Origin: Acidimicrobiia bacterium
Lineage (GTDB): Bacteria; Actinomycetota; Acidimicrobiia; IMCC26256; JACDBD01
NCBI GenBank assembly: GCA_035264545.1
Contig: DATFPZ010000219.1
Span: 1-37,598, forward strand
Reading direction: 5' to 3'
Length of the DNA: 37,598 nucleotides
Shown: positions 3,856 to 33,898 of the stretch, in pieces
Layout: the number at the start of each line of letters is the position of its first letter
How positions within the stretch are numbered: the first letter of the stretch is position 1
Program-made: the position numbers and the translations under genes
Notes under the pieces: generated by a model
What the model was told of the DNA's origin: nothing
The model's input: only the letters and a program-made list of their open reading frames with translations
Database searches by the model: none

Positions 3856-3898
3856 GATGGTGCGTTCAGCTTCGCATAGCGAAGCCGAGGAACGCATC
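3856..3898. repeat. nested-palindrome intergenic repeat, diverged copy D
   Basis: GATGGTGCGTTCAGCTTCGCATAGCGAAGCCGAGGAACGCATC. The outer stem is GGTGCGTT/AACGCATC and the inner hairpin is GCTTCGC-ATA-GCGAAGC. The architecture and termini match the copies at 6344, 11533 and 33850. It lies between the dehydrogenase stop and the synthetase start. Confidence 0.6.
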
Positions 3899-5148: not shown

Positions 5149-6345
5149 ATGTGTTTCGGGTCCGGGGCTGTGCGAAGCTCACCCTTCGTGCGCGGCAAGT
5201 CGATCGGTCTCCTTCTCTTTGCGCTCGTGGGCGTCCTCGGCCTGGTCGCGTCCGCTTGCTCGAGCAGCGACAACAGCAGAGCCCGGGGGGCACAGCCGTC
5301 TTCGACTGCGGCCACGACCACGGCCGCGCCCACGACCGCGCCACCGACGACCGCTGCGAAGCCTGACAACGTCTACGAGTTCACGCAGGCGAACCAGCTC
5401 GCGCCCTCGGTGCGCGACATTCCCACTCGCGTCTACGTGCCGAACGGGATGTCGAACACGGTCGACGTGATCGATCCGAACACGATGGCGGTCATCGACC
5501 AGTACCCGGTCGGGCGGCTGCCGCAGCACGTCGTGCCGTCGTGGGACATGCAGACGCTCTACGTGAACAACAACCAGGGCAACACGCTGACTCCGATCGA
5601 CCCCCGCACCGGGAAGCCGGGCGCACCGATCCCGATCGCCGACCCGTACAACCTGTACTTCTCACCCGACGGGACCAAGGCCATCGTCATGGCCGAGCGT
5701 GACAACTCCGTCGACTTCTACGACCCGAAGACCTGGGCGCTCATCAAGAAGCTGCACATCCCGCATACCGGTGTGAACCATGCCGAGTTCACTCCCGACG
5801 GGCAGACCATGGTTGCGAGCACGGAGTTCTCGGGGTTCCTCGTGAGGATCGACCTCGCCAGCATGGAGATCACCGGGGAGCTCGACGTGGGAGGAAAGCC
5901 CGTCGACGTGAAGCTCTCGCCCGATGGCACCGTCATGTTCAACGCCAACGAGACGAAGGACGGCGTCACGGTCGTGGACTGGGCGAACATGAGTGAGCTG
6001 CAGTTCATCCCGACCGGGAAGGGCGCGCACGGCCTGTACCCCAGCCGCGACGGCAAGCAGCTGTACGTGACGAACCGCGGCGCCGGCTCGGTGAGCGTGA
6101 TCGACTTCGCCTCACGGAGCATCGTCGGCAACTGGCACTTCGGCGGCAGCCCCGACATGGGCGGTGTCAGCAGCGACGGCAGGCAGCTCTGGCTCAGCGG
6201 CCGCTACAACTCCGAGGTCTACGTGATCGACACGACGACCGGGCAGCTGATCAAGAAGATCCCGGTCGGCAACGGTCCGCACGGCCTGGCGCTCTTCCCC
6301 CAACCCGGCCGGTACAGCATGGGCCACACCGGCAACTACCGCTGA
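5149..6345 (+). CDS. secreted/lipoprotein YVTN-repeat beta-propeller protein (YncE-like)
   Basis: C-terminal ~400 aa of ORF 4657..6345; the N-terminal 160 aa of that ORF are antisense to the dehydrogenase. It has a signal peptide with the lipobox-like LVASAC, a Thr/Ala/Pro linker and repeated YVxN/SPDG/LYVTNRGAGSVSVID propeller motifs. The start is ATG 5149 or GTG 5188. Confidence 0.8.
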   Translation: MCFGSGAVRSSPFVRGKSIGLLLFALVGVLGLVASACSSSDNSRARGAQPSSTAATTTAAPTTAPPTTAAKPDNVYEFTQANQLAPSVRDIPTRVYVPNGMSNTVDVIDPNTMAVIDQYPVGRLPQHVVPSWDMQTLYVNNNQGNTLTPIDPRTGKPGAPIPIADPYNLYFSPDGTKAIVMAERDNSVDFYDPKTWALIKKLHIPHTGVNHAEFTPDGQTMVASTEFSGFLVRIDLASMEITGELDVGGKPVDVKLSPDGTVMFNANETKDGVTVVDWANMSELQFIPTGKGAHGLYPSRDGKQLYVTNRGAGSVSVIDFASRSIVGNWHFGGSPDMGGVSSDGRQLWLSGRYNSEVYVIDTTTGQLIKKIPVGNGPHGLALFPQPGRYSMGHTGNYR

Positions 6346-6386
6346 TGCGTATCCGAGTGACGCTCAGCGTCCTCGAAATACGCATC
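6344..6386. repeat. 43-nt nested-palindrome intergenic repeat, copy A
   Basis: GATGCGTATCCGAGTGACGCTCAGCGTCCTCGAAATACGCATC. It has a 9-bp outer stem, a CGAG/CTCG middle stem and a GACGC-TCA-GCGTC inner hairpin. It begins inside the TGA of the propeller gene and sits between convergent genes. Confidence 0.75.
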
Positions 6387-8589: not shown

Positions 8590-9627
8590 TCAGCTGCCCT
8601 TCAGCTCGACGACGGTGGCGACGGGGGCGCGATCCGTGCCTTGTCCGCCGACGAAGTACGCGGTGTCGCCGATCGTGGTCACCGCGCCGTCGGTCACGGG
8701 CGCCGGCAGCGTCCCGGCCTCGGCGACGGTTGCGTTCTGCGGCGCGAACCGCAGCACCTGCCCGCTCACCTGATTGCCGACGAAGCCGCCGAGCACGTAG
8801 ATGCGGTCGCCGAGCTCGACGGCGCTGGCATGTGACAACGGCGCGGGCAGCTGGCCGACGACGCTGACCTTGCCGCTTCCTGGATCGATCTTCTGGATCG
8901 AGCGCGTATCGGCGCCGCTCGCGCTGGCCACGCCGCCGAACACGTAGATCGCTCCGCCGGTTGCCGCCACCGCCGGGTAGCGCACGGGCTCGGCGAGGGC
9001 ACCAAGGATCCGGTAATTCGTGCCGTCGTCGCTCACGAGCACGTTCGGCGAGATCAGGTGACCGTCGTACCCGCCGACCACGTACACCTTGCCGTCGATT
9101 GTCGCCGAGACGTGGTCCGACAACGGGCCGGGAACGCTCCCTACGACCTTGCCGGCGGAACCGGGCTGGAACGACTGAACGGATGCGCTTCCTTCCTCGC
9201 CCGTGCCTCCGGCGATCACGACGTACGCGCCATTGACGACCGCGCCGGCGGCGTCGTGCACCGGCTGCGCGAGGGAGCCAAGCGTCTGCGACGCGCCGTT
9301 CGACGGGTCGACGCTCACGACGCTGCCCGTCGTCAGCTTCGACGCGTCGAGCCCACCCAGCACGACCAGCTGCTTCCCGTCCGTCAGCACGACCTCACGG
9401 GACGACGGCGACGGCAGCTTCCACGGCGCCGCGGTGATGCGTACTCCACCGGCGGCGGTCGTCGTGGGTGTCGACGACAGCGTGCTCCCCGGCGCGGTTG
9501 TCGACGGCGCACGCTTCGACGTGGAGTCGTCTCCGCCGCCTCCACCGCACGCGGCGACGAGAATGGCGACCGCGCCGAGCGCGACGACGGGGCGGACGGC
9601 GCGCAGCACGGCGGCACCCTTGCACAC
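8590..9627 (-). CDS. Kelch-repeat lipoprotein
   Basis: 345-aa ORF with a GTG start. It has a signal peptide with lipobox LVAAC, a Ser/Thr/Pro linker and repeated Kelch-type blades (VVLGG, VIAGG, YVVGGYDG, YVFGG, YVLGG, YFVGG). Confidence 0.8.
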   Translation of the reverse strand: MCKGAAVLRAVRPVVALGAVAILVAACGGGGGDDSTSKRAPSTTAPGSTLSSTPTTTAAGGVRITAAPWKLPSPSSREVVLTDGKQLVVLGGLDASKLTTGSVVSVDPSNGASQTLGSLAQPVHDAAGAVVNGAYVVIAGGTGEEGSASVQSFQPGSAGKVVGSVPGPLSDHVSATIDGKVYVVGGYDGHLISPNVLVSDDGTNYRILGALAEPVRYPAVAATGGAIYVFGGVASASGADTRSIQKIDPGSGKVSVVGQLPAPLSHASAVELGDRIYVLGGFVGNQVSGQVLRFAPQNATVAEAGTLPAPVTDGAVTTIGDTAYFVGGQGTDRAPVATVVELKGS

Positions 9628-9671
9628 CGAATACGACGGGCCCCAGTCGGATCGTCACGATACGATCAGGC

Positions 9672-9786
9672 TCGACCCAGTGGGGAGCTCGGGACAGCCG
9701 GGCTGAGAGGGTGGCCACGCCGAGAGCGTGTGGCAGCGCCACCGACCCGTGGAACCTGCACCGGGTAATTCCGGCGAAGGGAGGGA
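9672..9786 (+). promoter_or_regulatory. TPP (THI-box) riboswitch
   Basis: All conserved aptamer blocks are visible: GGGGAGC...GCUGAGA (J3-2), a variable P3 GGGUGGCC...GGCAGCGCCACC, ACCC, and GAACCUGCACCGGGUAAUUCCGGCGAAGGGA. The 3' end AAGGGAGGG doubles as the SD of the ATG at 9786, which suggests translational control. Thiamine genes follow. Confidence 0.9.
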
Positions 9787-10448
9787 TGGTGGAGACGCCC
9801 GAAGCGAGCGTGGCGCTCGTCTTCGCGGGCGGTGATCCGGTCGACGCCGCAGTCGCGGCGCGCCTACCCGACGCCGCCTTCACCGTCGCCGCCGACTCGG
9901 GCGTCGAGCACGCGCTCGCACTGGGGCGCAACGTCGACCTCGTCGTCGGAGACTTCGACTCCGCCGATCCGGGCGTGGTCGACGCAGCCGTCGCGGGTGG
10001 CGCCGAGGTGCGCCGGTACCCCGCCGAGAAGGCCCAGAGCGATCTCGAGCTCGCCGTGCGCGCGGCGCGTGACAGCGGCGCGACCTACGTGATCGTCGTC
10101 GGCGGCTCCGGCGGGCGGCTCGACCATCTCCTCGCGAACGCGTTGCTGCTCGCGTCCCCGTCGTTCGATGACATCGATATCGAGGCATTGCTGAATAGCA
10201 CCCGCATCACGGTCATCCGCCGCGACGCGAGTCTCTCGGGCGCGCCGGGCGACGTGTGCTCGCTGCTCGCGGCCGGTGGTCCAGCCCGCGGCGTGCGAAC
10301 GACGGGCTTGCGGTATCCGCTCGACCACGAAGATCTCCTGCCCGGATCCACCCGGGGGCTGAGCAACGAGCTCGCCGAACCAGTCGCGACCGTCTCACTC
10401 GAGCAAGGCACCCTGCTGGCCGTACAACCCGACCTCGGAGGAACCTGA
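9786..10448 (+). CDS. thiN: thiamine pyrophosphokinase
   Basis: Internal ATG of ORF 9468..10448 (MVETPEASVALVFAGGDP...). TPK hallmarks are present: VVGDFDS, EKAQSDLELAV, VVGGSGGRLDH and a C-terminal thiamine-binding beta domain. It lies directly behind the TPP riboswitch. Confidence 0.85.
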   Translation: MVETPEASVALVFAGGDPVDAAVAARLPDAAFTVAADSGVEHALALGRNVDLVVGDFDSADPGVVDAAVAGGAEVRRYPAEKAQSDLELAVRAARDSGATYVIVVGGSGGRLDHLLANALLLASPSFDDIDIEALLNSTRITVIRRDASLSGAPGDVCSLLAAGGPARGVRTTGLRYPLDHEDLLPGSTRGLSNELAEPVATVSLEQGTLLAVQPDLGGT

Positions 10449-10449
10449 C

Positions 10450-11520
10450 ATGCGCCGACTGCCCCTGTTCACGCTCGCCGTCTCGCTCCTCGCGGCGGCG
10501 TTGGCCACCGGTGGTCCGGTAGCGGCGACGGCATCGGCGCCGGCCGGCTCCGACGGCACGACGATCACGCTCATGACCCACGACTCGTTCAACGCGTCGA
10601 AGCGAGTCATTCGCCAGTTCACGAAGCGGACCGGCGTGAGCGTGGACGTGCTGCCGTCGGGCGACGCGGGAGCAGCCGTCAATCAGGCGATCCTCACCAA
10701 GAACAATCCGCTCGGCGACGTGTTCTTCGGCGTCGACAACACGCTGCTCAGCCGGGCACTCGACGAGGGCATCTTCGTCCCGTACAAGTCACCCGAGCTC
10801 GCGCACGTCCCGGAGTCGCTCCAGCTCGATCCGCGGAACCGCGTCAGCCCGGTCGACACCGGGGACGTGTGCCTCAACTTCGACCGGAAGTATTTCACCG
10901 ACAAGAAGCTCACCGTCCCGAAGACGCTCGACGACCTGACGAAGCCGGAGTACAAGGGCTTGCTCGTCGTCGAGAACCCGGCGACGTCGTCGCCCGGATT
11001 GGCGTTCCTGCTCGCCACGGTGGCCAAGTTCGGACCGGACGGCTGGCGCGCCTACTGGGACAAGCTGCAGGCCAACGACGTCAAGGTCGTCGACGGCTGG
11101 GAGCAGGCGTACAACACCGAGTTCTCGGGGAGCGCCGGCAAAGGGGACTACCCGCTGGTGGTGTCATACGCGACCAGCCCTCCGGCGGAGGTGGTGAACG
11201 CCGACTCCCGGCCGGAGGAGCCGCCGACCGGCGCGTTGCTCGACACGTGCTTCCGGCAGATCGAGTTCGTCGGCATCCTCAAGGGCACCACGCACGAGAA
11301 GGCCGCAAAGCAGTTCGTCGACTTCATGCTGTCGGACCGATTCCAGCGCGACATGCCTCTCCAGATGTACGTGTTCCCCGCCCGCGACGGCACGAAGCTC
11401 CCGCCGGCGTTCGTGAAATACGCCAAGGTCGCCCCGAGGCCGCTGTCGCTCCCGCCCGAGGACATCGCCCGAAACCGAGACCAATGGATCGACGAGTGGA
11501 CCAACACCGTCCTCCGGTGA
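10450..11520 (+). CDS. thiB: thiamine ABC transporter substrate-binding protein
   Basis: 356-aa ORF with a signal peptide and the TbpA/ThiB-like periplasmic-binding fold (LMTHDSFN..., GDVFFGVDN, SSPGLAFL). It starts 1 nt after the TPK stop. Confidence 0.85.
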   Translation: MRRLPLFTLAVSLLAAALATGGPVAATASAPAGSDGTTITLMTHDSFNASKRVIRQFTKRTGVSVDVLPSGDAGAAVNQAILTKNNPLGDVFFGVDNTLLSRALDEGIFVPYKSPELAHVPESLQLDPRNRVSPVDTGDVCLNFDRKYFTDKKLTVPKTLDDLTKPEYKGLLVVENPATSSPGLAFLLATVAKFGPDGWRAYWDKLQANDVKVVDGWEQAYNTEFSGSAGKGDYPLVVSYATSPPAEVVNADSRPEEPPTGALLDTCFRQIEFVGILKGTTHEKAAKQFVDFMLSDRFQRDMPLQMYVFPARDGTKLPPAFVKYAKVAPRPLSLPPEDIARNRDQWIDEWTNTVLR

Positions 11521-11530
11521 GCGTCGCGCC

Positions 11531-13198
11531 ATGATGCGTACCTCAACTGCGCAGAGCGCACCTCGGATACGCATCGGGCACGTGCTCCTGCTTTCGGTGC
11601 CGCTGGCGTTCCTGGGCGTGTTCTTCGTGTATCCGGTGGCGTCGATCATCGGTCGCGGGCTCACGCCGGGCGGGACGCTGGACCTCAGCCCGATCGGTGC
11701 AGTCGTGACCGACTCGCAGCTGCGGGACGTGGCGTGGTTCACGATCTGGCAGGCGACGGTATCGACCGCGCTCACGGTGCTCGTCGCGATCCCGGGCGCA
11801 TACGTGTTCGCGCGGTACGAGTTCCGTGGAAAGCGACTCGTGCGGGCGGCGGTGCTCGTCCCGTTCGTGCTGCCGACGGTCGTGGTCGGCTCCGCGTTCC
11901 TCGCCCTGCTCGGCGAAGGCGGCCCTCTCGGGTTCCTCGGTCTCGACCAGTCGCTCGCCGCCATCCTCGTCGCCCACGTGTTCTTCAACTACGCGGTCGT
12001 GGTGCTGATCGTCGGTGGTCTGTGGGCGCACCTCGATCCGCGCCAGGAGGACGCGGCCCGCGTCCTCGGCGCCGGTCGGTGGCAGACGTTTCGCGCGGTC
12101 ACACTGCCGGCACTCCGGCCCGCGATCGCGGCCGCAGCGGCGATCGTGTTCCTGTTCACATTCACGTCCTTCGGGGTGATCTTGATCCTCGGCGGGCCGG
12201 GCTACTCGACCCTCGAGACAGAGATCTACCGGCAGACCGTGCAGTTCCTCGACCTACCGCAGGCAGCTGCGCTGTCGATCGTGCAGCTGGCGGCGGTCGT
12301 CGCCGTGCTGCTGGTCGCGGGCCGCGCGCAAGGCCGGCGGGCGCTGGCGCTGCGGTTGCGCGCCAGCGCCGAGACGTCCCGCCTGGCTCGCACTCCCGGC
12401 GAGCGCGCCGTCGTGAGCTTCAACCTGGTGGTGATGGCCCTCCTGCTCGGCGGGCCGATCCTCGTGCTCGTCGAGCGGTCGTTCGACACGGCCGGCGGGT
12501 ACAGCTTGGGCTTCTACCGCGCGTTGTCGGAGCTGCGCCGCACGAGCACCGTCTTCGTGCCTCCGATCGAAGCTGTGCGCAACTCGGTCGTGTTCGCGTC
12601 GATCGCGACCGTCATCGCCCTCGTGATCGGTGGATTGGCGGCGTTCGCGGTCGCCGGCCCCCGCCGCGGCGCGCAGCCGGCACGCGGACTCGACACCCTG
12701 CTGCTCCTGCCGCTCGGGGTTTCGGCGGTGACGATCGGTTTCGGCTTTCTGATCGCGCTCGACCGGCCGCCGTTCGACCTGCGCGCGTCCCCCGCGCTGA
12801 TCCCGATCGCGCACGCCCTCGTGGCGGCGCCGTTCGTCGCCCGAGTCATGATCCCGGTGCTGCGGTCCATCGACCAGCGCCTGCGCGAGACCGCCGCGGT
12901 CCTCGGCGCCTCGCCGGGACGCGTCTGGCGGGAGATCGACCTGCCGATCGTCACTCGGGCCGTGCTCGTGGCGGCCGGGTTCGCGTTCGCCATCTCGCTC
13001 GGCGAGTTCGGGGCGACGATCTTCATCGCCCGTCCCGACTACCCCACCCTGCCCGTTGTCATCTTCCGCCTCCTCGGTCAGCCCGGCGCGTTGAACTTCG
13101 GCGCCGCGATGGCGGCGAGCGTCATCCTGATGGCCGTGACCGCACTGGCGATCTTCGCCATCGAGCGCTTCCGCTTCGCCAACATCGGGGAGTTCTGA
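11531..13198 (+). CDS. thiP: thiamine ABC transporter permease (two fused permease domains)
   Basis: 555-aa ORF with about 12 TM segments and two EAA-type loops (EDAARVLGAGRWQTFRAVTLP and ETAAVLGASPGRVWREIDLP). The ATG at 11531 gives a basic N-tail, but those codons are the repeat and have low GC3. Alternative start GTG 11582. Confidence 0.85.
   Translation: MMRTSTAQSAPRIRIGHVLLLSVPLAFLGVFFVYPVASIIGRGLTPGGTLDLSPIGAVVTDSQLRDVAWFTIWQATVSTALTVLVAIPGAYVFARYEFRGKRLVRAAVLVPFVLPTVVVGSAFLALLGEGGPLGFLGLDQSLAAILVAHVFFNYAVVVLIVGGLWAHLDPRQEDAARVLGAGRWQTFRAVTLPALRPAIAAAAAIVFLFTFTSFGVILILGGPGYSTLETEIYRQTVQFLDLPQAAALSIVQLAAVVAVLLVAGRAQGRRALALRLRASAETSRLARTPGERAVVSFNLVVMALLLGGPILVLVERSFDTAGGYSLGFYRALSELRRTSTVFVPPIEAVRNSVVFASIATVIALVIGGLAAFAVAGPRRGAQPARGLDTLLLLPLGVSAVTIGFGFLIALDRPPFDLRASPALIPIAHALVAAPFVARVMIPVLRSIDQRLRETAAVLGASPGRVWREIDLPIVTRAVLVAAGFAFAISLGEFGATIFIARPDYPTLPVVIFRLLGQPGALNFGAAMAASVILMAVTALAIFAIERFRFANIGEF
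11533..11575. repeat. 43-nt nested-palindrome repeat, copy B
   Basis: GATGCGTACCTCAACTGCGCAGAGCGCACCTCGGATACGCATC. It has an 8-bp outer stem and an inner hairpin TGCGC-AGA-GCGCA. It lies 12 nt after the thiB stop and covers codons 1-15 of the longest thiP ORF. Confidence 0.75.
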
Positions 13199-14154
13199 TG
13201 TTGCGGGTTGCGTCGCTCGAAGTCCGCTACGGCGACACCGTCGCGCTCGACGGCGTCGAGCTCGTCGTCGGCGACGGCGAGGTCGTGTCGGTCCTCGGAC
13301 CGAGCGGCAGCGGCAAGAGCACGCTGCTCCGCGCCGTCGCCGGCCTCGAGCCGCCGGTGCACGGCCGGGTCGAGTGGGACGGCGACGACCTCACGCGCGT
13401 GCCTCCCCACCGCCGGCAGCTGGGCTTGATGTTCCAGGACCACACCCTGTTCCCGCACCGTGATGTGCTCGGCAACGTCGTGTTCGGGCTGCGCATGCGC
13501 AACGTGCCGGCGACGCAGGCGGCCTCCCGCGCGAGCGAGCTGCTCACGCTGGTCGGGTTGGCCGGTTACGAGCACCGGCGCGTCACCGAGCTGTCGGGCG
13601 GCGAGCAGCAGCGGGTCGCGCTGGCCCGGGCGCTGGCACCAGCCCCGCGCCTGCTCATGCTCGACGAGCCACTGGGATCGCTCGACCGCGCTCTGCGGGA
13701 GCGGCTGATGGTCGAGCTGCGCGATTTGTTCACCCGCCTCGGGCTCACGTCCCTCTACGTCACCCACGACCACGACGAGGCCTTTGCGCTCGCAGACCGT
13801 GTCGCGGTCATGCACGATGGCCGCATCGAGCAACTCGGCTCGCCGGTCGACGTGTGGGAGCATCCGGCCAGCGAGTTCGTCGCGCGCTTCCTCGGATACA
13901 ACGTCACTGACGCGCTCGGCGGCGGCCGTGTCGCGGTGCGTCCCGATTCGCTGCGCGTCGACCCGGAAGGATCGATCGTGGGCGTCGTCACGGCCCGAAC
14001 GTTTCGCCGCGACCACTTCCTGCTCGAGGTGAAGGTCGCCGACGGACCGTCTTTGGAGGTGGCCGTGACCGGCGACCGCATTCCCGATGCCGGCGACCCG
14101 GTCCGCCTCACCGCCGACCCCGCCGCGATCGTGGCCCTGCCCTCTGATCGATGA
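13198..14154 (+). CDS. thiQ: thiamine ABC transporter ATP-binding protein
   Basis: Internal ATG of ORF 11734..14154, overlapping the thiP stop as TGATG. It has Walker A GPSGSGKST, signature LSGGEQQRV, Walker B LLMLDEP and a C-terminal TOBE-like domain. Confidence 0.85.
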   Translation: MLRVASLEVRYGDTVALDGVELVVGDGEVVSVLGPSGSGKSTLLRAVAGLEPPVHGRVEWDGDDLTRVPPHRRQLGLMFQDHTLFPHRDVLGNVVFGLRMRNVPATQAASRASELLTLVGLAGYEHRRVTELSGGEQQRVALARALAPAPRLLMLDEPLGSLDRALRERLMVELRDLFTRLGLTSLYVTHDHDEAFALADRVAVMHDGRIEQLGSPVDVWEHPASEFVARFLGYNVTDALGGGRVAVRPDSLRVDPEGSIVGVVTARTFRRDHFLLEVKVADGPSLEVAVTGDRIPDAGDPVRLTADPAAIVALPSDR

Positions 14155-14243
14155 CTCTCGCGACCGTCCCGTCGCGGCATCTGCACCGAATCTCCACACC
14201 CCTGGCAAGACTCCCCGAAACCGGTTCCTTATCCTGGCGTGCG

Positions 14244-14990
14244 ATGCCTCCGGCTCCCGCGGCTGCCGCCCCGGCCCGCACGATCGTCGTCGTCGAAGAC
14301 GAAGCCTCGATCGCGGCCGCGGTCGCGGCGCGGCTCCGCAGTGAGGGGTTCGTCGTCGAGATCGCGGCCGACGGACCCGGCGGGGTCGAGATGTGCGAGC
14401 GAGTTCATCCCGACCTCGTCGTGCTCGACCTGATGCTGCCGGGTCTCGACGGCCTCGAGGTATGCCGGCGCATCCAGCACGACCGACCGGTGCCGGTGCT
14501 GATGCTGACCGCCCGCGACTCGGAGACCGACATGGTCGTGGGGCTGGCCGTCGGCGCCGACGACTACCTGACGAAGCCCTTCAGCCCCCGCGAGCTCGTC
14601 GCGCGAGTGCACGCGCTCCTCCGCCGCGTCGAGCGCGCCGGCGCGGCGCCCGCCAACGCGGGCGGCATGCTGCACGTCGCCGGGGCCGACCTCGACCTCG
14701 CGACCCGCCGCGTCCGCCGGGGCGACGAGACCGTGCACCTCACCCCGACCGAGTTCGACTTGCTCGCGCATCTCGCTTCGCACCCGGGCCAGGTGTTCAC
14801 GCGCGGGCAACTGCTGCTGCAGGTATGGGGCTACCACGACGGCTCGGGTGCGCGCACCGTCGACTCGCACGTGCGGGCCGTTCGTCGCAAGTTGGGTCCC
14901 GACGTGATCCGCACGGTGCACGGTGTGGGCTACGCGGCCGACGATGCCGCCGTCACCGCCGCATCGGGCGGCACCCGGGATCGATCGTGA
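14244..14990 (+). CDS. OmpR/PhoB-family response regulator
   Basis: Internal ATG of ORF 14151..14990. The receiver domain has TIVVVEDE, DLVVLDLMLPGLDG and KPF; the winged-helix output has LTPTEFDLL and TVHGVGY. Confidence 0.9.
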   Translation: MPPAPAAAAPARTIVVVEDEASIAAAVAARLRSEGFVVEIAADGPGGVEMCERVHPDLVVLDLMLPGLDGLEVCRRIQHDRPVPVLMLTARDSETDMVVGLAVGADDYLTKPFSPRELVARVHALLRRVERAGAAPANAGGMLHVAGADLDLATRRVRRGDETVHLTPTEFDLLAHLASHPGQVFTRGQLLLQVWGYHDGSGARTVDSHVRAVRRKLGPDVIRTVHGVGYAADDAAVTAASGGTRDRS

Positions 14991-30431: not shown

Positions 30432-30653
30432 GCCGGCCGACGCGCGAATGGAGCGGGGGGCGGCCGCCGGGCGATGCGTCCCGGGCAGTCCGGCCCGCCC
30501 GGCCGAGACCCGGGTCGAAGACCCGAGCTGAGCGAGCGCAGCGAGCGAAGCGAGCAGGGGCTCGGACGGATCAGCGGTGCCGGCCCGGGCGCATCAGTCC
30601 GGTGCGCCGTCCACCGCGGTCACGTGCCACCCGGCCTGTGCGCGCCCGAGCTG

Positions 30654-31852: not shown

Positions 31853-33838
31853 TCAGTTCACGCCGTCGTGCAAGACGGAGACGATGACCCGCATGATGAG
31901 CACGACGCTACAGAACAGGCTGAAGTAGCCGAAGAACTCGTACAGCGAGGTGTCGCCGGCGAACGGCGGTCCACCGCTGACGCCGACGAGGATCGCCCCG
32001 ATGAGACCGACGACGCCGCCGGTGAGCGCGAGCACGGTCCGGTTCACCAGCTTGGTGACGACGTGCTCGTCGTGCGGGTCGGAGAACAGGCTGACGCGGG
32101 CGCGGAAGTTGCCCCGCTCGATCTGGTTGGCCATCCGGTCGAGACGCCGCGGCAGACGGCGCAGCAGTGGTCCCATGCGGATGAGCTCTTCGCGGGCGAG
32201 CTCCTCGAGCGTCGACGGCGCCAGCCGTGCCCGCATCCACTCGGCCGCGATGGCCTCGGCCCGGTCGATGACCGGAAACCCGGGCGACAGCGTCGTGAGC
32301 GTCCCTTCCAGGGTGATGAGCGCCCGGAAGAACGTGCTCAGCTCGGGCGGCAGGTTGATCCCGAACGTGAAGAACAGCTGGAGCAGGTCGTTGAACATCG
32401 CTGCGCTCGGCACCATCCCCGGCGCGAGGTGACGCGTCATGAAGCGGGCCAGTGCCCGCTCGAGCTCCTCGTCGTCGACGTCACGCCGGAGCGTTGCGAC
32501 TTGCAGCACGGCTTGGCGGAGCAGATCGGGGTCGCGCTGCGACACGCCGATCATGACATCGCGGATCGCCGTTTGCTGGAGGGGATCGATGCGGCTGGCG
32601 GCGCCGAAGTCGATGAGGGCGAGCCGTCCGTCGCGCAGCACCATCACGTTCCCGGGGTGCGGATCGGCGTGGTACTGCGCGTCCACGAGCATCTGCTGGA
32701 GCATGCAGCGCAGCAAGTCCTCCGCCAGCTGGCGCCGGTCGACGCCGAGGTCGTCGATCTCGTCCGTGTCGCGCACGCTGACGCCGTCCAGCCACTCCAT
32801 CACGAGCACCCGGGGGGTCGTGAGGTCGTGGAACACGGCGGGGATCCGCACGTCGCTGCCGTCGTCGAGGTTGGCGGCGATGTCGGACGCGTTGCGCGCT
32901 TCGATCTCGAAGTCGAGCTCCTCCCGCAGGCGTTCGGCGAACTCGTCGGCGAGGTCGGACACGTGATAGTCGGCGCCCCACGTCGTGCGTTGCTCGACCA
33001 TGGTGGCGAGCTCGTTGAGGACGTCCAGGTCGCGGTTCACCGAGTTGGCGACACCCGGGCGCTGGACCTTCACGACCACTTGCTGGCCGCCGTGCAGGCG
33101 CGCCCGGTGGGCCTGCCCGATCGAGGCCGCCGCCAGCGGCTTCCAGTCGAACTCGGCGAAGACGTCGTCGACGGGAGCACCCAGCTCGTCCTCGAGCAGC
33201 TCTCGCACGCCGTCGGGCGGCGCCGGGGCGACGTGGTCCTGGAGATGCGACAGCTCCACCGCCACCGGTGGCGACACGAGATCCGAGCGGGTCGACGCGA
33301 CTTGGCCCATCTTCACGAACATCCCGCCGCACTCCTCGAGGGAATGGCGGAGCCGCCGCGCGAACGGCACCTGCCTTGCCTCACCGTCCTCGGAGTGACG
33401 CCCGAGCCCGAGGGACGGGCCGAGCCCGTTGCGGATCGCAATGCGCGTGATCTGCGCGTAGCGGCTGACGCGCCGGCCTCGGCGCTTCACGGCCTTGATC
33501 GGGTGCGGGATCGACGTCAGCCCGGTCTGGGCGCGCGCGAGCGTGCCCGGCTTGGCCAGCAGCTCGATCCACACCGATGCCGACATCACGCCGAGCGTCG
33601 AGAACAACCAGACGTTGCGGGTGAACCCCTGCGACACCGGCTCGCGCTGGCTCGCGATCGCAAGCGAAAGCGCGACGCCGCCGACCCAGCCGAGCACGCC
33701 GGAGAGGAGCGTCGCCGTCCACGACCGCCGTACGCCGAGCAGCCGCCCGACGAGCCATGCGAGGACGAGCACGCCCGGCAACGAGAGCAGGACGGCGAGA
33801 TCGATGAGGTCGCCGAGGTCCTCGGCCGCCAGGATCAT
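31853..33838 (-). CDS. ABC1/UbiB-family atypical kinase with N- and C-terminal TM segments
   Basis: 661-aa ORF with FVKMGQVASTRSDL, PLAAASIGQAHRA, VVKVQRPG and HADPHPGNV...LIDFGA. There are three N-terminal and two C-terminal hydrophobic helices. Confidence 0.9.
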   Translation of the reverse strand: MILAAEDLGDLIDLAVLLSLPGVLVLAWLVGRLLGVRRSWTATLLSGVLGWVGGVALSLAIASQREPVSQGFTRNVWLFSTLGVMSASVWIELLAKPGTLARAQTGLTSIPHPIKAVKRRGRRVSRYAQITRIAIRNGLGPSLGLGRHSEDGEARQVPFARRLRHSLEECGGMFVKMGQVASTRSDLVSPPVAVELSHLQDHVAPAPPDGVRELLEDELGAPVDDVFAEFDWKPLAAASIGQAHRARLHGGQQVVVKVQRPGVANSVNRDLDVLNELATMVEQRTTWGADYHVSDLADEFAERLREELDFEIEARNASDIAANLDDGSDVRIPAVFHDLTTPRVLVMEWLDGVSVRDTDEIDDLGVDRRQLAEDLLRCMLQQMLVDAQYHADPHPGNVMVLRDGRLALIDFGAASRIDPLQQTAIRDVMIGVSQRDPDLLRQAVLQVATLRRDVDDEELERALARFMTRHLAPGMVPSAAMFNDLLQLFFTFGINLPPELSTFFRALITLEGTLTTLSPGFPVIDRAEAIAAEWMRARLAPSTLEELAREELIRMGPLLRRLPRRLDRMANQIERGNFRARVSLFSDPHDEHVVTKLVNRTVLALTGGVVGLIGAILVGVSGGPPFAGDTSLYEFFGYFSLFCSVVLIMRVIVSVLHDGVN

Positions 33839-33849
33839 GGTGCGTGCAT

Positions 33850-33892
33850 GATGCGTATCTGAACTGCGCAGAGCGCAGCTGAGATACGCATC
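33850..33892. repeat. 43-nt nested-palindrome repeat, copy C
   Basis: GATGCGTATCTGAACTGCGCAGAGCGCAGCTGAGATACGCATC. It has an 11-bp outer stem and a CTGCGC-AGA-GCGCAG inner hairpin. It lies between the acyl-CoA ligase stop (33899) and the UbiB-like start (33838). Confidence 0.8.
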
Positions 33893-33898
33893 GTCGGT

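Follow-up and report, generated by a model that had tools for sequence, protein, structure and literature searches.

A 43-nt palindromic repeat at the thiB-thiP junction of uncultured Acidimicrobiia appears to supply the thiP start codon and to have its interior exchanged in place

Short palindromic repeats of bacteria (REP, TRIT, Correia and RPE among them) tend to be regarded as intergenic passengers or RNA-stability elements. A REP reportedly lies in the malE-malF intergenic region of E. coli, as Newbury et al. are said to have described in 1987. Mycobacterial interspersed repetitive units (MIRU), reportedly described by Supply et al. in 1997, are direct, often tandem, repeats of 46-101 bp. 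Rickettsia palindromic elements (RPE), which Ogata et al. are said to have reported in 2000 as mobile sequences inserted in frame in protein genes and translated, are 100-150 bp long and located inside genes; to our knowledge they neither supply an initiation codon nor are overwritten in place. The attC sites of integrons (57-141 nt) stand in cassette arrays, need the integron integrase and are recognised as folded single strands. Here we describe a repeat from a stretch of 37,598 nt (the window; contig DATFPZ010000219.1 of assembly GCA_035264545.1, an Acidimicrobiia bacterium), part of a 2.88-Mb metagenome-assembled genome (MAG) of 435 contigs and 70% GC. The repeat, a 43-nt palindrome of the form GATGCGT-N29-ACGCATC, sits between thiB and thiP, the substrate-binding protein and permease genes of a thiamine-type ATP-binding cassette (ABC) importer operon. 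It resembles REP, TRIT, MIRU and RPE in part but belongs to none of them, being a stop-hugging palindrome adopted as a start codon, with an interior that turns over in place. The TRIT ('Tuberculosis Rho-independent terminator') motif has been found only in Mycobacterium (PMC3152330) and, once considered a terminator, is now thought to be an RNase III substrate (PMC13714241).

The junction copy (copy B) reads GATGCGTACCTCAACTGCGCAGAGCGCACCTCGGATACGCATC at 11533-11575 and, as a preliminary description of this DNA had stated, begins 12 nt (11521-11532) past the TGA of thiB. That description named ATG 11531 and ATG 11534 as the only ATG candidates for thiP, and they are indeed the first in-frame starts of a 555-aa open reading frame (ORF) at 11531-13198; the former straddles the first base of the element and the latter forms its positions 2-4. 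Of its two readings of the thiP start, the one placing it inside the element was supported and could be sharpened to ATG 11534, whereas the other, GTG 11582, the next in-frame start, was not conserved in orthologues. We compared thiB-thiP junctions from 40 relatives and 80 further genome records, in which element-bearing junctions came from 16 genus genomes with an assembled junction and from two other genera of the family, each represented by one genome. The comparison supports a thiP that begins at the element's own ATG 11534, so that its first 14 residues, MRTSTAQSAPRIRI, would be repeat. The equivalent of ATG 11534 was the only start candidate common to all orthologues, lay in the thiP frame in 17 of the 18 junction copies (the exception, G004, has a frameshifted thiP), and in L009 and L011 was the sole in-frame ATG, GTG or TTG near the junction. 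The 14-codon frame was open in all 16 usable junction copies, whereas the proportion open among other copies was 51% in this genome and 77% in relatives; the consensus of the main subfamily in this genome has TGA at positions 11-13, where copy B has TCA. The 12 codons following the element showed the orthologue consensus D-R-x-R-[VLI]-x-R-G-L-[LM]-L, with synonymous to nonsynonymous codon differences of 266:322 when read in the thiP frame (the other two frames gave 95:468 and 53:507), and two invariant Arg positions employing all four CGN codons. This coding pattern implies that the stretch is translated and that the start therefore lies further upstream. A public protein collection held the exact 554-aa product from 11534 and neither the 555-aa nor the 538-aa version, and thiP of relatives was annotated at 559-560 aa, beginning MR... 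or MMR.... The preliminary description had asked whether orthologues conserve the N-terminal peptide without a palindrome; we found that they keep the palindrome and not the peptide, of which only M-R...R-I, encoded by the invariant element termini, was retained. It had also pointed to the low GC content at third codon positions of the first 15 codons (9/15, against ~0.91 across the remaining ORF) and to the flank CATGATGCG, repeated at copy C (33847-33893, 89% identity over 47 nt), where no plus-strand gene starts and both neighbouring genes are on the minus strand; each of these details was borne out.

Element-free junctions showed what the repeat would have replaced. At 38 distinct element-free junctions of Acidimicrobiia, an in-frame [A/G]TG overlapped the thiB stop (ATGA or GTGA), as in L016, where ATG AGA TGG CGA CGC... 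encodes MRWRRAALLAVP. The element-bearing junction of the window carries a mini-ORF across the same stop (Table 1); its closing TGA is made of the flanking T and the GA of the element, and overlaps ATG 11534 as TGATG. A mini-ORF ending at T|GA was found in 13 of 15 genus loci, with spacers of 6, 9 or 12 nt, and in all new filled metagenome contigs with the flank read (L162, L163, L165, L168, L171, L175 and L179). Deleting the T and the 43 nt recovered an ORF of the old type (MNAAP-DRRRVARGLLL is one example). The insertion thus apparently added 44 nt, which left the old start out of frame. On this comparison the mini-ORF appears to be the leftover of the ancestral thiP 5' end, and the simplest history would be that 44 nt were added five codons into thiP, after which the ATG of the repeat was captured. 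In G024, from another genus, the element is 4 nt more distant from the stop and shares the frame of the old ATGA start, probably through a separate event.

The sequence of events that we propose starts in the ancestor of the genus, where the repeat would have landed about five codons into a thiP whose start then overlapped the thiB stop (ATGA/GTGA), adding 44 nt and pushing the old start out of frame. The ATG of the repeat, in frame with the remaining thiP, would have become the start codon, and the remaining 42 repeat bases codons 1-14 (M-R-x10-R-I), which would form a variable tail in the cytoplasm ahead of the first membrane helix. The mini-ORF at 11517-11534, running from the thiB stop to the TGA that overlaps the new ATG, would preserve the five old codons. 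The copy would then have stayed at the junction in all genus members sampled, its 29-nt interior repeatedly exchanged with other copies, usually of the same genome, without a RAYT transposase. We regard this combined account, in which a mobile repeat landed in ancestral thiP, donated the start, had its interior exchanged repeatedly and left a hairpin that is mainly a by-product, as likely.

The site was fixed. A 43-mer lay 6-12 nt past the thiB stop in all 16 genus genomes with an assembled junction, as it did in two further genomes, from two other genera of the family, where the distance was 12 and 16 nt. All 11 genus-like metagenome contigs were likewise filled, and no empty junction allele was seen among the 27 metagenome contigs examined. 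The copy C site was filled in three of 12 genus genomes, with differing interiors, and the copy A site in one of four, the window genome; it was empty in each of the three relatives that retain the flanks (L138, for instance, reads ...ACTACCGCTAGCGAGCCG), and copy A is therefore a lineage-specific insertion. Given this insertion polymorphism at other sites, the repeat family behaves as mobile DNA.

Pairwise mean identity between junction copies was 84% in the flanks, 95% in the 14 terminal bases and 40% in the 29-nt interiors. Flank and interior identity were uncorrelated (rho 0.04), and the junction interior, unexpectedly, does not follow phylogeny: L001 and L002 were 92.5% identical in the flanks and 17% in the interiors, and L002 and L007 89% and 97%. 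In several genomes the junction interior matched the genome's own dominant subfamily; the best same-genome match to it averaged 0.72, compared with 0.56 in other genomes (Wilcoxon p = 0.02), and the own genome ranked first in five of 11 cases. Within species the copy was stable, being identical where flanks were 98-100% identical, and copy B recurred letter for letter in two metagenome contigs that match the window at 98-99% in the flanks. From these comparisons, junction interiors seem to have been replaced between species; conversion from other copies could account for this, as could excision followed by re-insertion. L004 and L008, with flanks 98% identical, had six differences among the 29 interior bases, every one of them in the left arm; in both of these low-copy genomes the element changes much faster than its flanks. 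L168 and L171 had looked like a strain-level interior swap, with near-identical immediate flanks; we set this pair aside, as their flanks were <92% identical over 500 nt. One tentative proposal, which we hold to be possible and on balance doubtful, is that machinery other than RAYT, acting on the folded hairpin, copies one hairpin over another in place via the invariant 7-nt termini, and that the thiB-thiP copy is an often-overwritten resident, domesticated to serve an essential-type transporter gene as start codon and as a gate opened by ribosomes. If true, in-place cassette replacement would be a new mode of repeat maintenance and a new route for a selfish repeat into a gene.

Two other histories of the junction have to be weighed against this account. 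In the one, thiP of this genome starts at GTG 11582 and the element is an untranslated intergenic insertion between thiB and thiP. The GTG is present here and in G001 and G009, was preferred by our codon-usage gene caller, and would leave outside the gene the 15 element codons with their low third-position GC. The window genome and two close metagenomic relatives (P0006 and P0011) also share a 15-nt deletion just after the element. The same position is CTC or CTG in most orthologues, though, and in P0011, which shares the deletion, Ala replaces the valine of GTG 11582; no Shine-Dalgarno core precedes the GTG either, and the product in the public collection is the 554-aa and not the 538-aa form. 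A start there would furthermore remove the positively charged tail ahead of the first membrane helix, and we consider it very improbable. Five DRRRV-type codons present in all other genus members are missing here and in P0006 and P0011 (11576-11584), leaving the element-encoded arginines as the only positive charges before that helix. The A-to-G change that weakens the copy B stem (CAG/GAG to CGG) creates one of these arginines. In the other history, the junction copies are independent hot-spot insertions in each lineage instead of one ancestral insertion with an overwritten interior. Repeated hits are possible, since three non-sister genomes have the copy C site filled and their interiors differ, and the G024 element stands in a different register. 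Against that, position and relic mini-ORF are alike across the genus, no empty intermediate occurred among 16 genomes and 11 contigs, and every re-insertion would need to restore the same frame, which makes independent insertion improbable, if less so than the GTG start.

Several points nevertheless tell against our own account of a single insertion, a donated start and an exchanged interior. The five DRRRV-type codons are missing and GTG 11582 is present in this genome, and a start shift specific to this lineage may be conceivable; our caller's choice of that GTG was overruled on comparative grounds. Frame and position go back to a single insertion, so that a count of 17 in-frame copies out of 18 does not represent 18 independent trials, and with about eight independent interior types the probability of all being open is only ~0.03. 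The likeness of the junction interior to other copies of the same genome fails in the low-copy genomes G001, G014 and G009. The mini-ORF may be a historical relic without a role, and spacer-length changes came in multiples of three in only four of six cases (P ~0.1, hand calculation). Shine-Dalgarno cores precede only ~36% of the genome's genes (crude starts), which makes their absence before thiP weak evidence. Two loci departed from the usual arrangement: in L003 (G013) thiB and thiP read as a single 947-aa frame, and in L027 (G004) thiP is frameshifted just past the element; both assemblies have few long contigs, and indel errors are the likely cause.

Copy B was predicted to form 15 of 20 possible pairs at -18.8 kcal/mol: eight in an outer stem, two more, and five in an inner hairpin. 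The 86-nt region around it reached -39.4 kcal/mol, compared with -31.5 +/- 3.3 for shuffles (z = -2.4), and shuffles of the window held no second match at <=3 mismatches. The 'very stable stem-loop' of the preliminary description was accordingly recovered as a predicted hairpin and not as an exceptionally stable one, copy B being the weakest of 17 orthologous copies (range -19 to -33 kcal/mol). There was no U-tract after the hairpin, the tail after the stem being GGGCACGTGCTCC, and the canonical definition of an intrinsic terminator, a GC-rich stem with a U-tract behind it, does not apply; a scan for intrinsic terminators and promoters found nothing at the thiB-thiP junction. Before the ATG, 15 of 16 orthologues lacked a GGAG, GAGG or AGGA Shine-Dalgarno core. 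With no such core and the ATG in the foot of the stem, thiP translation probably depends on ribosomes from thiB, and would proceed mainly by termination and re-initiation: the mini-ORF would lead ribosomes into the stem foot, the stem would melt, and they would restart at the overlapping ATG.

Whether such a hairpin is a by-product or a selected device is the remaining choice. As a REP-like regulator, the role suggested in the preliminary description, it would form an RNA stem that halts 3' exonucleases or is cleaved by RNase III, and would occlude thiP initiation, leaving ThiB in excess of ThiP, and the site would be filled for that benefit. This fits the 100% occupancy of the junction beside polymorphic sites elsewhere, and the lack of any precise loss, which should be viable given that removal of the T and 43 nt would restore the ancestral frame. 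It also fits the predicted opening energy of the initiation window, on average ~6 kcal/mol higher with the element (23.8 +/- 4.0 kcal/mol) than without (17.4 +/- 3.2; Mann-Whitney p = 3e-6), yet copy B itself, at 19.2 kcal/mol, falls inside the element-free range and is the weakest of the set. The hairpin was kept at the orthologous site, where 80% of cells paired, 12 of 20 pairs had changed on both sides and the covariation score was 0.41 compared with 0.17 for shuffled data; this pairing is not evidence of local stem selection, because whole, ready-made palindromes are imported, and where the family is rare the junction stem decays (-19 kcal/mol in G001 and G009). The similarly stop-hugging TRIT of Mycobacterium has been linked to transcript 3' ends, presumably via RNase III (PMC13714241), for which the mismatched stem of copy B would be a poor substrate, and the absence of a U-tract also counts against a regulatory role. 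In E. coli, REPs <16 nt from a stop codon make ribosomes stall, and the gene before them is expressed less (Liang et al. 2015, cited through PMC12306157); such an effect would mean lower, not higher, ThiB. A selected regulator is in our view unlikely, though it is the stronger of the alternatives considered. The better fit of the two views, and most likely the correct one under this model, is that the hairpin is a tolerated, locked-in by-product of donating the start codon; it would at most moderately damp thiP output.

The repeat family extends well beyond the window. With exact ends, GATGCGT-N29-ACGCATC occurred 37 times in the genome and the reversed control pattern 0 times, which shows that the recurrence is not due to chance; permitting one mismatch per end gave ~48 palindromic copies. 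Genome-wide, the two 7-mers were 29 nt apart in 37 of 41 pairings and 0 nt apart in none. A 29-nt unit inserting into a 14-nt palindromic target was therefore unsupported, as GATGCGTACGCATC (spacing 0) was absent from the genome. Among 24 further genomes from this taxonomic family, 23 had the pattern (1 to 56 copies each); outside it, one of 16 other families of the order did, and the reversed control was found nowhere; its carriers are uncultured, mostly soil, Acidimicrobiia. Interiors vary between subfamilies and genomes yet stay palindromic. By our own crude codon-usage gene caller, from which all gene neighbours of copies were taken, 44 of the 48 copies abutted the 3' end of a gene, at -13, -2 or 0 to 12 nt; 18 lay between convergent, 20 between co-directional and four between divergent gene pairs. 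Besides three good copies, the window held one diverged copy. RAYT (Y1 HUH transposase, PF01797) was found neither in the window's genome nor in 24 genomes of the same family, some of them 94-99% complete, and control genomes were positive. In Rfam searches, nothing in the window reached the gathering threshold, and nothing around the junction matched at E <= 1.

Copy B was the sole convincing start-codon donor in this genome. Six other copies with ORFs in the ATG frame were rejected as donors, these being shadow frames opposite real genes or non-palindromic matches. Stem position 12/32 was a retained mismatch, with C.C in 16, G.G in 12, G-C in 12 and C-G in none of the 48 copies, and every copy therefore has, on one strand or both, a TGA at ATG-frame positions 11-13. 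Many genes beside copies end at this TGA or at a T|GA on the element edge. On the minus strand of 33836-33892, copy C is followed by a mini-ORF, ATG CAC GCA CCA TGA, whose TGA overlaps the ATG of a UbiB-like gene, mirroring the thiB-thiP mini-ORF. A 123-nt stretch in a long convergent spacer (30473-30595), with ends GATGCGT...GGCGCATC that resemble the repeat termini, may be a longer relative of the family.

Set beside the malE-malF REP, copy B shares its place as a short repeated palindrome between the binding-protein and permease genes of an ABC importer operon, with a possible RNA stem; the E. coli REP, however, lies in an untranslated spacer, whereas the repeat here is inside the permease ORF and gives its ATG. 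With REP and REPIN-RAYT systems in general the family shares a short imperfect palindrome and many dispersed copies (~48 in 2.9 Mb, 44 of 48 abutting a gene 3' end), but it lacks a cognate RAYT (PF01797) across 25 genomes of the family, has no GTAG or GTGG head at the hairpin foot, all copies starting Y|GATGCGT, and is strictly 43 nt long. TRIT would be the closest analogue: both are palindromic, bidirectional repeats of high-GC Actinomycetota whose numerous copies keep close to a stop codon or lie within it, as do the 44 of 48 copies at the distances given above and copy B at 12 nt. TRIT appears to differ in sequence, and neither start-codon donation nor interior replacement at fixed sites has been reported for it. 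MIRU likewise lie between operon genes, with small ORFs that overlap the starts and stops of neighbours and suggest translational coupling, comparable to the mini-ORF at 11517-11534; the copies here are instead single 43-nt inverted-repeat units with strictly 29-nt interiors, not direct repeats. RPE are also mobile palindromic repeats translated as part of a protein, but the 43-nt repeat is far shorter. As attC sites are generally described, they share invariant 7-nt inverted termini, a variable palindromic interior and a location at gene 3' ends; the 43-nt copies are dispersed among housekeeping genes and not arranged in cassette arrays.

The names thiB and thiP are reasonable given the profile matches and neighbouring genes (Table 1). 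The permease aligned full-length to ThiP models, with scores under the equivalog cut-offs, and the locus has the composition of thiBPQ: a substrate-binding protein that passes the thiamine model, with a fused double permease and an ATPase alongside. Rfam found no thiamine pyrophosphate (TPP) riboswitch across the window, including the 9400-14400 cluster, and no sigma-70-like promoter was matched within that cluster.

Table 1. Features of the thiamine-type importer operon and copies of the 43-nt repeat in the window
Feature	Coordinates	Strand	Basis or remark
Diverged fourth copy of repeat	3856..3898	.	family D3, 62% identity
Copy A of repeat	6344..6386	.	between convergent genes
Thiamine diphosphokinase gene, directly 5' of thiB	9711..10448	+	NCBIfam TIGR01378, 144 bits (cut-off 76.4); start from crude caller
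thiB, thiamine-type ABC substrate-binding protein	10450..11520	+	TGA 11518-11520; NCBIfam TIGR01254, 252 bits (cut-off 93.4)
Putative relic mini-ORF GTG AGC GTC GCG CCA TGA	11517..11534	+	GTG overlaps thiB stop (GTGA)
Second in-frame ATG, one codon upstream	11531..11533	+	in only about half of orthologues, hence not the conserved start
Copy B of repeat, GATGCGT-N29-ACGCATC	11533..11575	.	sequence, family matching
Outer stem 5' arm (GATGCGTA)	11533..11540	+	predicted fold; partner 11568-11575
thiP, fused double permease	11534..13198	+	supported start at element ATG; codons 1-14 MRTSTAQSAPRIRI
Inner hairpin TGCGC-AGA-GCGCA	11548..11560	+	predicted fold
Outer stem 3' arm (TACGCATC)	11568..11575	+	predicted fold
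GTG, rival thiP start	11582..11584	+	rejected: not conserved; 538-aa product not in public collection
ABC ATPase gene, thiQ-like, same operon	13198..14154	+	ORF list, crude caller, profile search
Copy C of repeat	33850..33892	.	between two minus-strand genes

In practical terms, gene callers will encounter start codons within repeats in these MAGs, and for thiP accepting the start is, on the comparative evidence, right. For the biology of the family, in all genus members sampled a repeat appears to serve a conserved transporter gene as initiation codon and N-terminus, replacing an ATGA-coupled start that is still visible as a mini-ORF. Its interior seems to have been replaced between species with the 7-nt ends and the length kept constant, which points to a copy-and-replace mechanism in a RAYT-free lineage.

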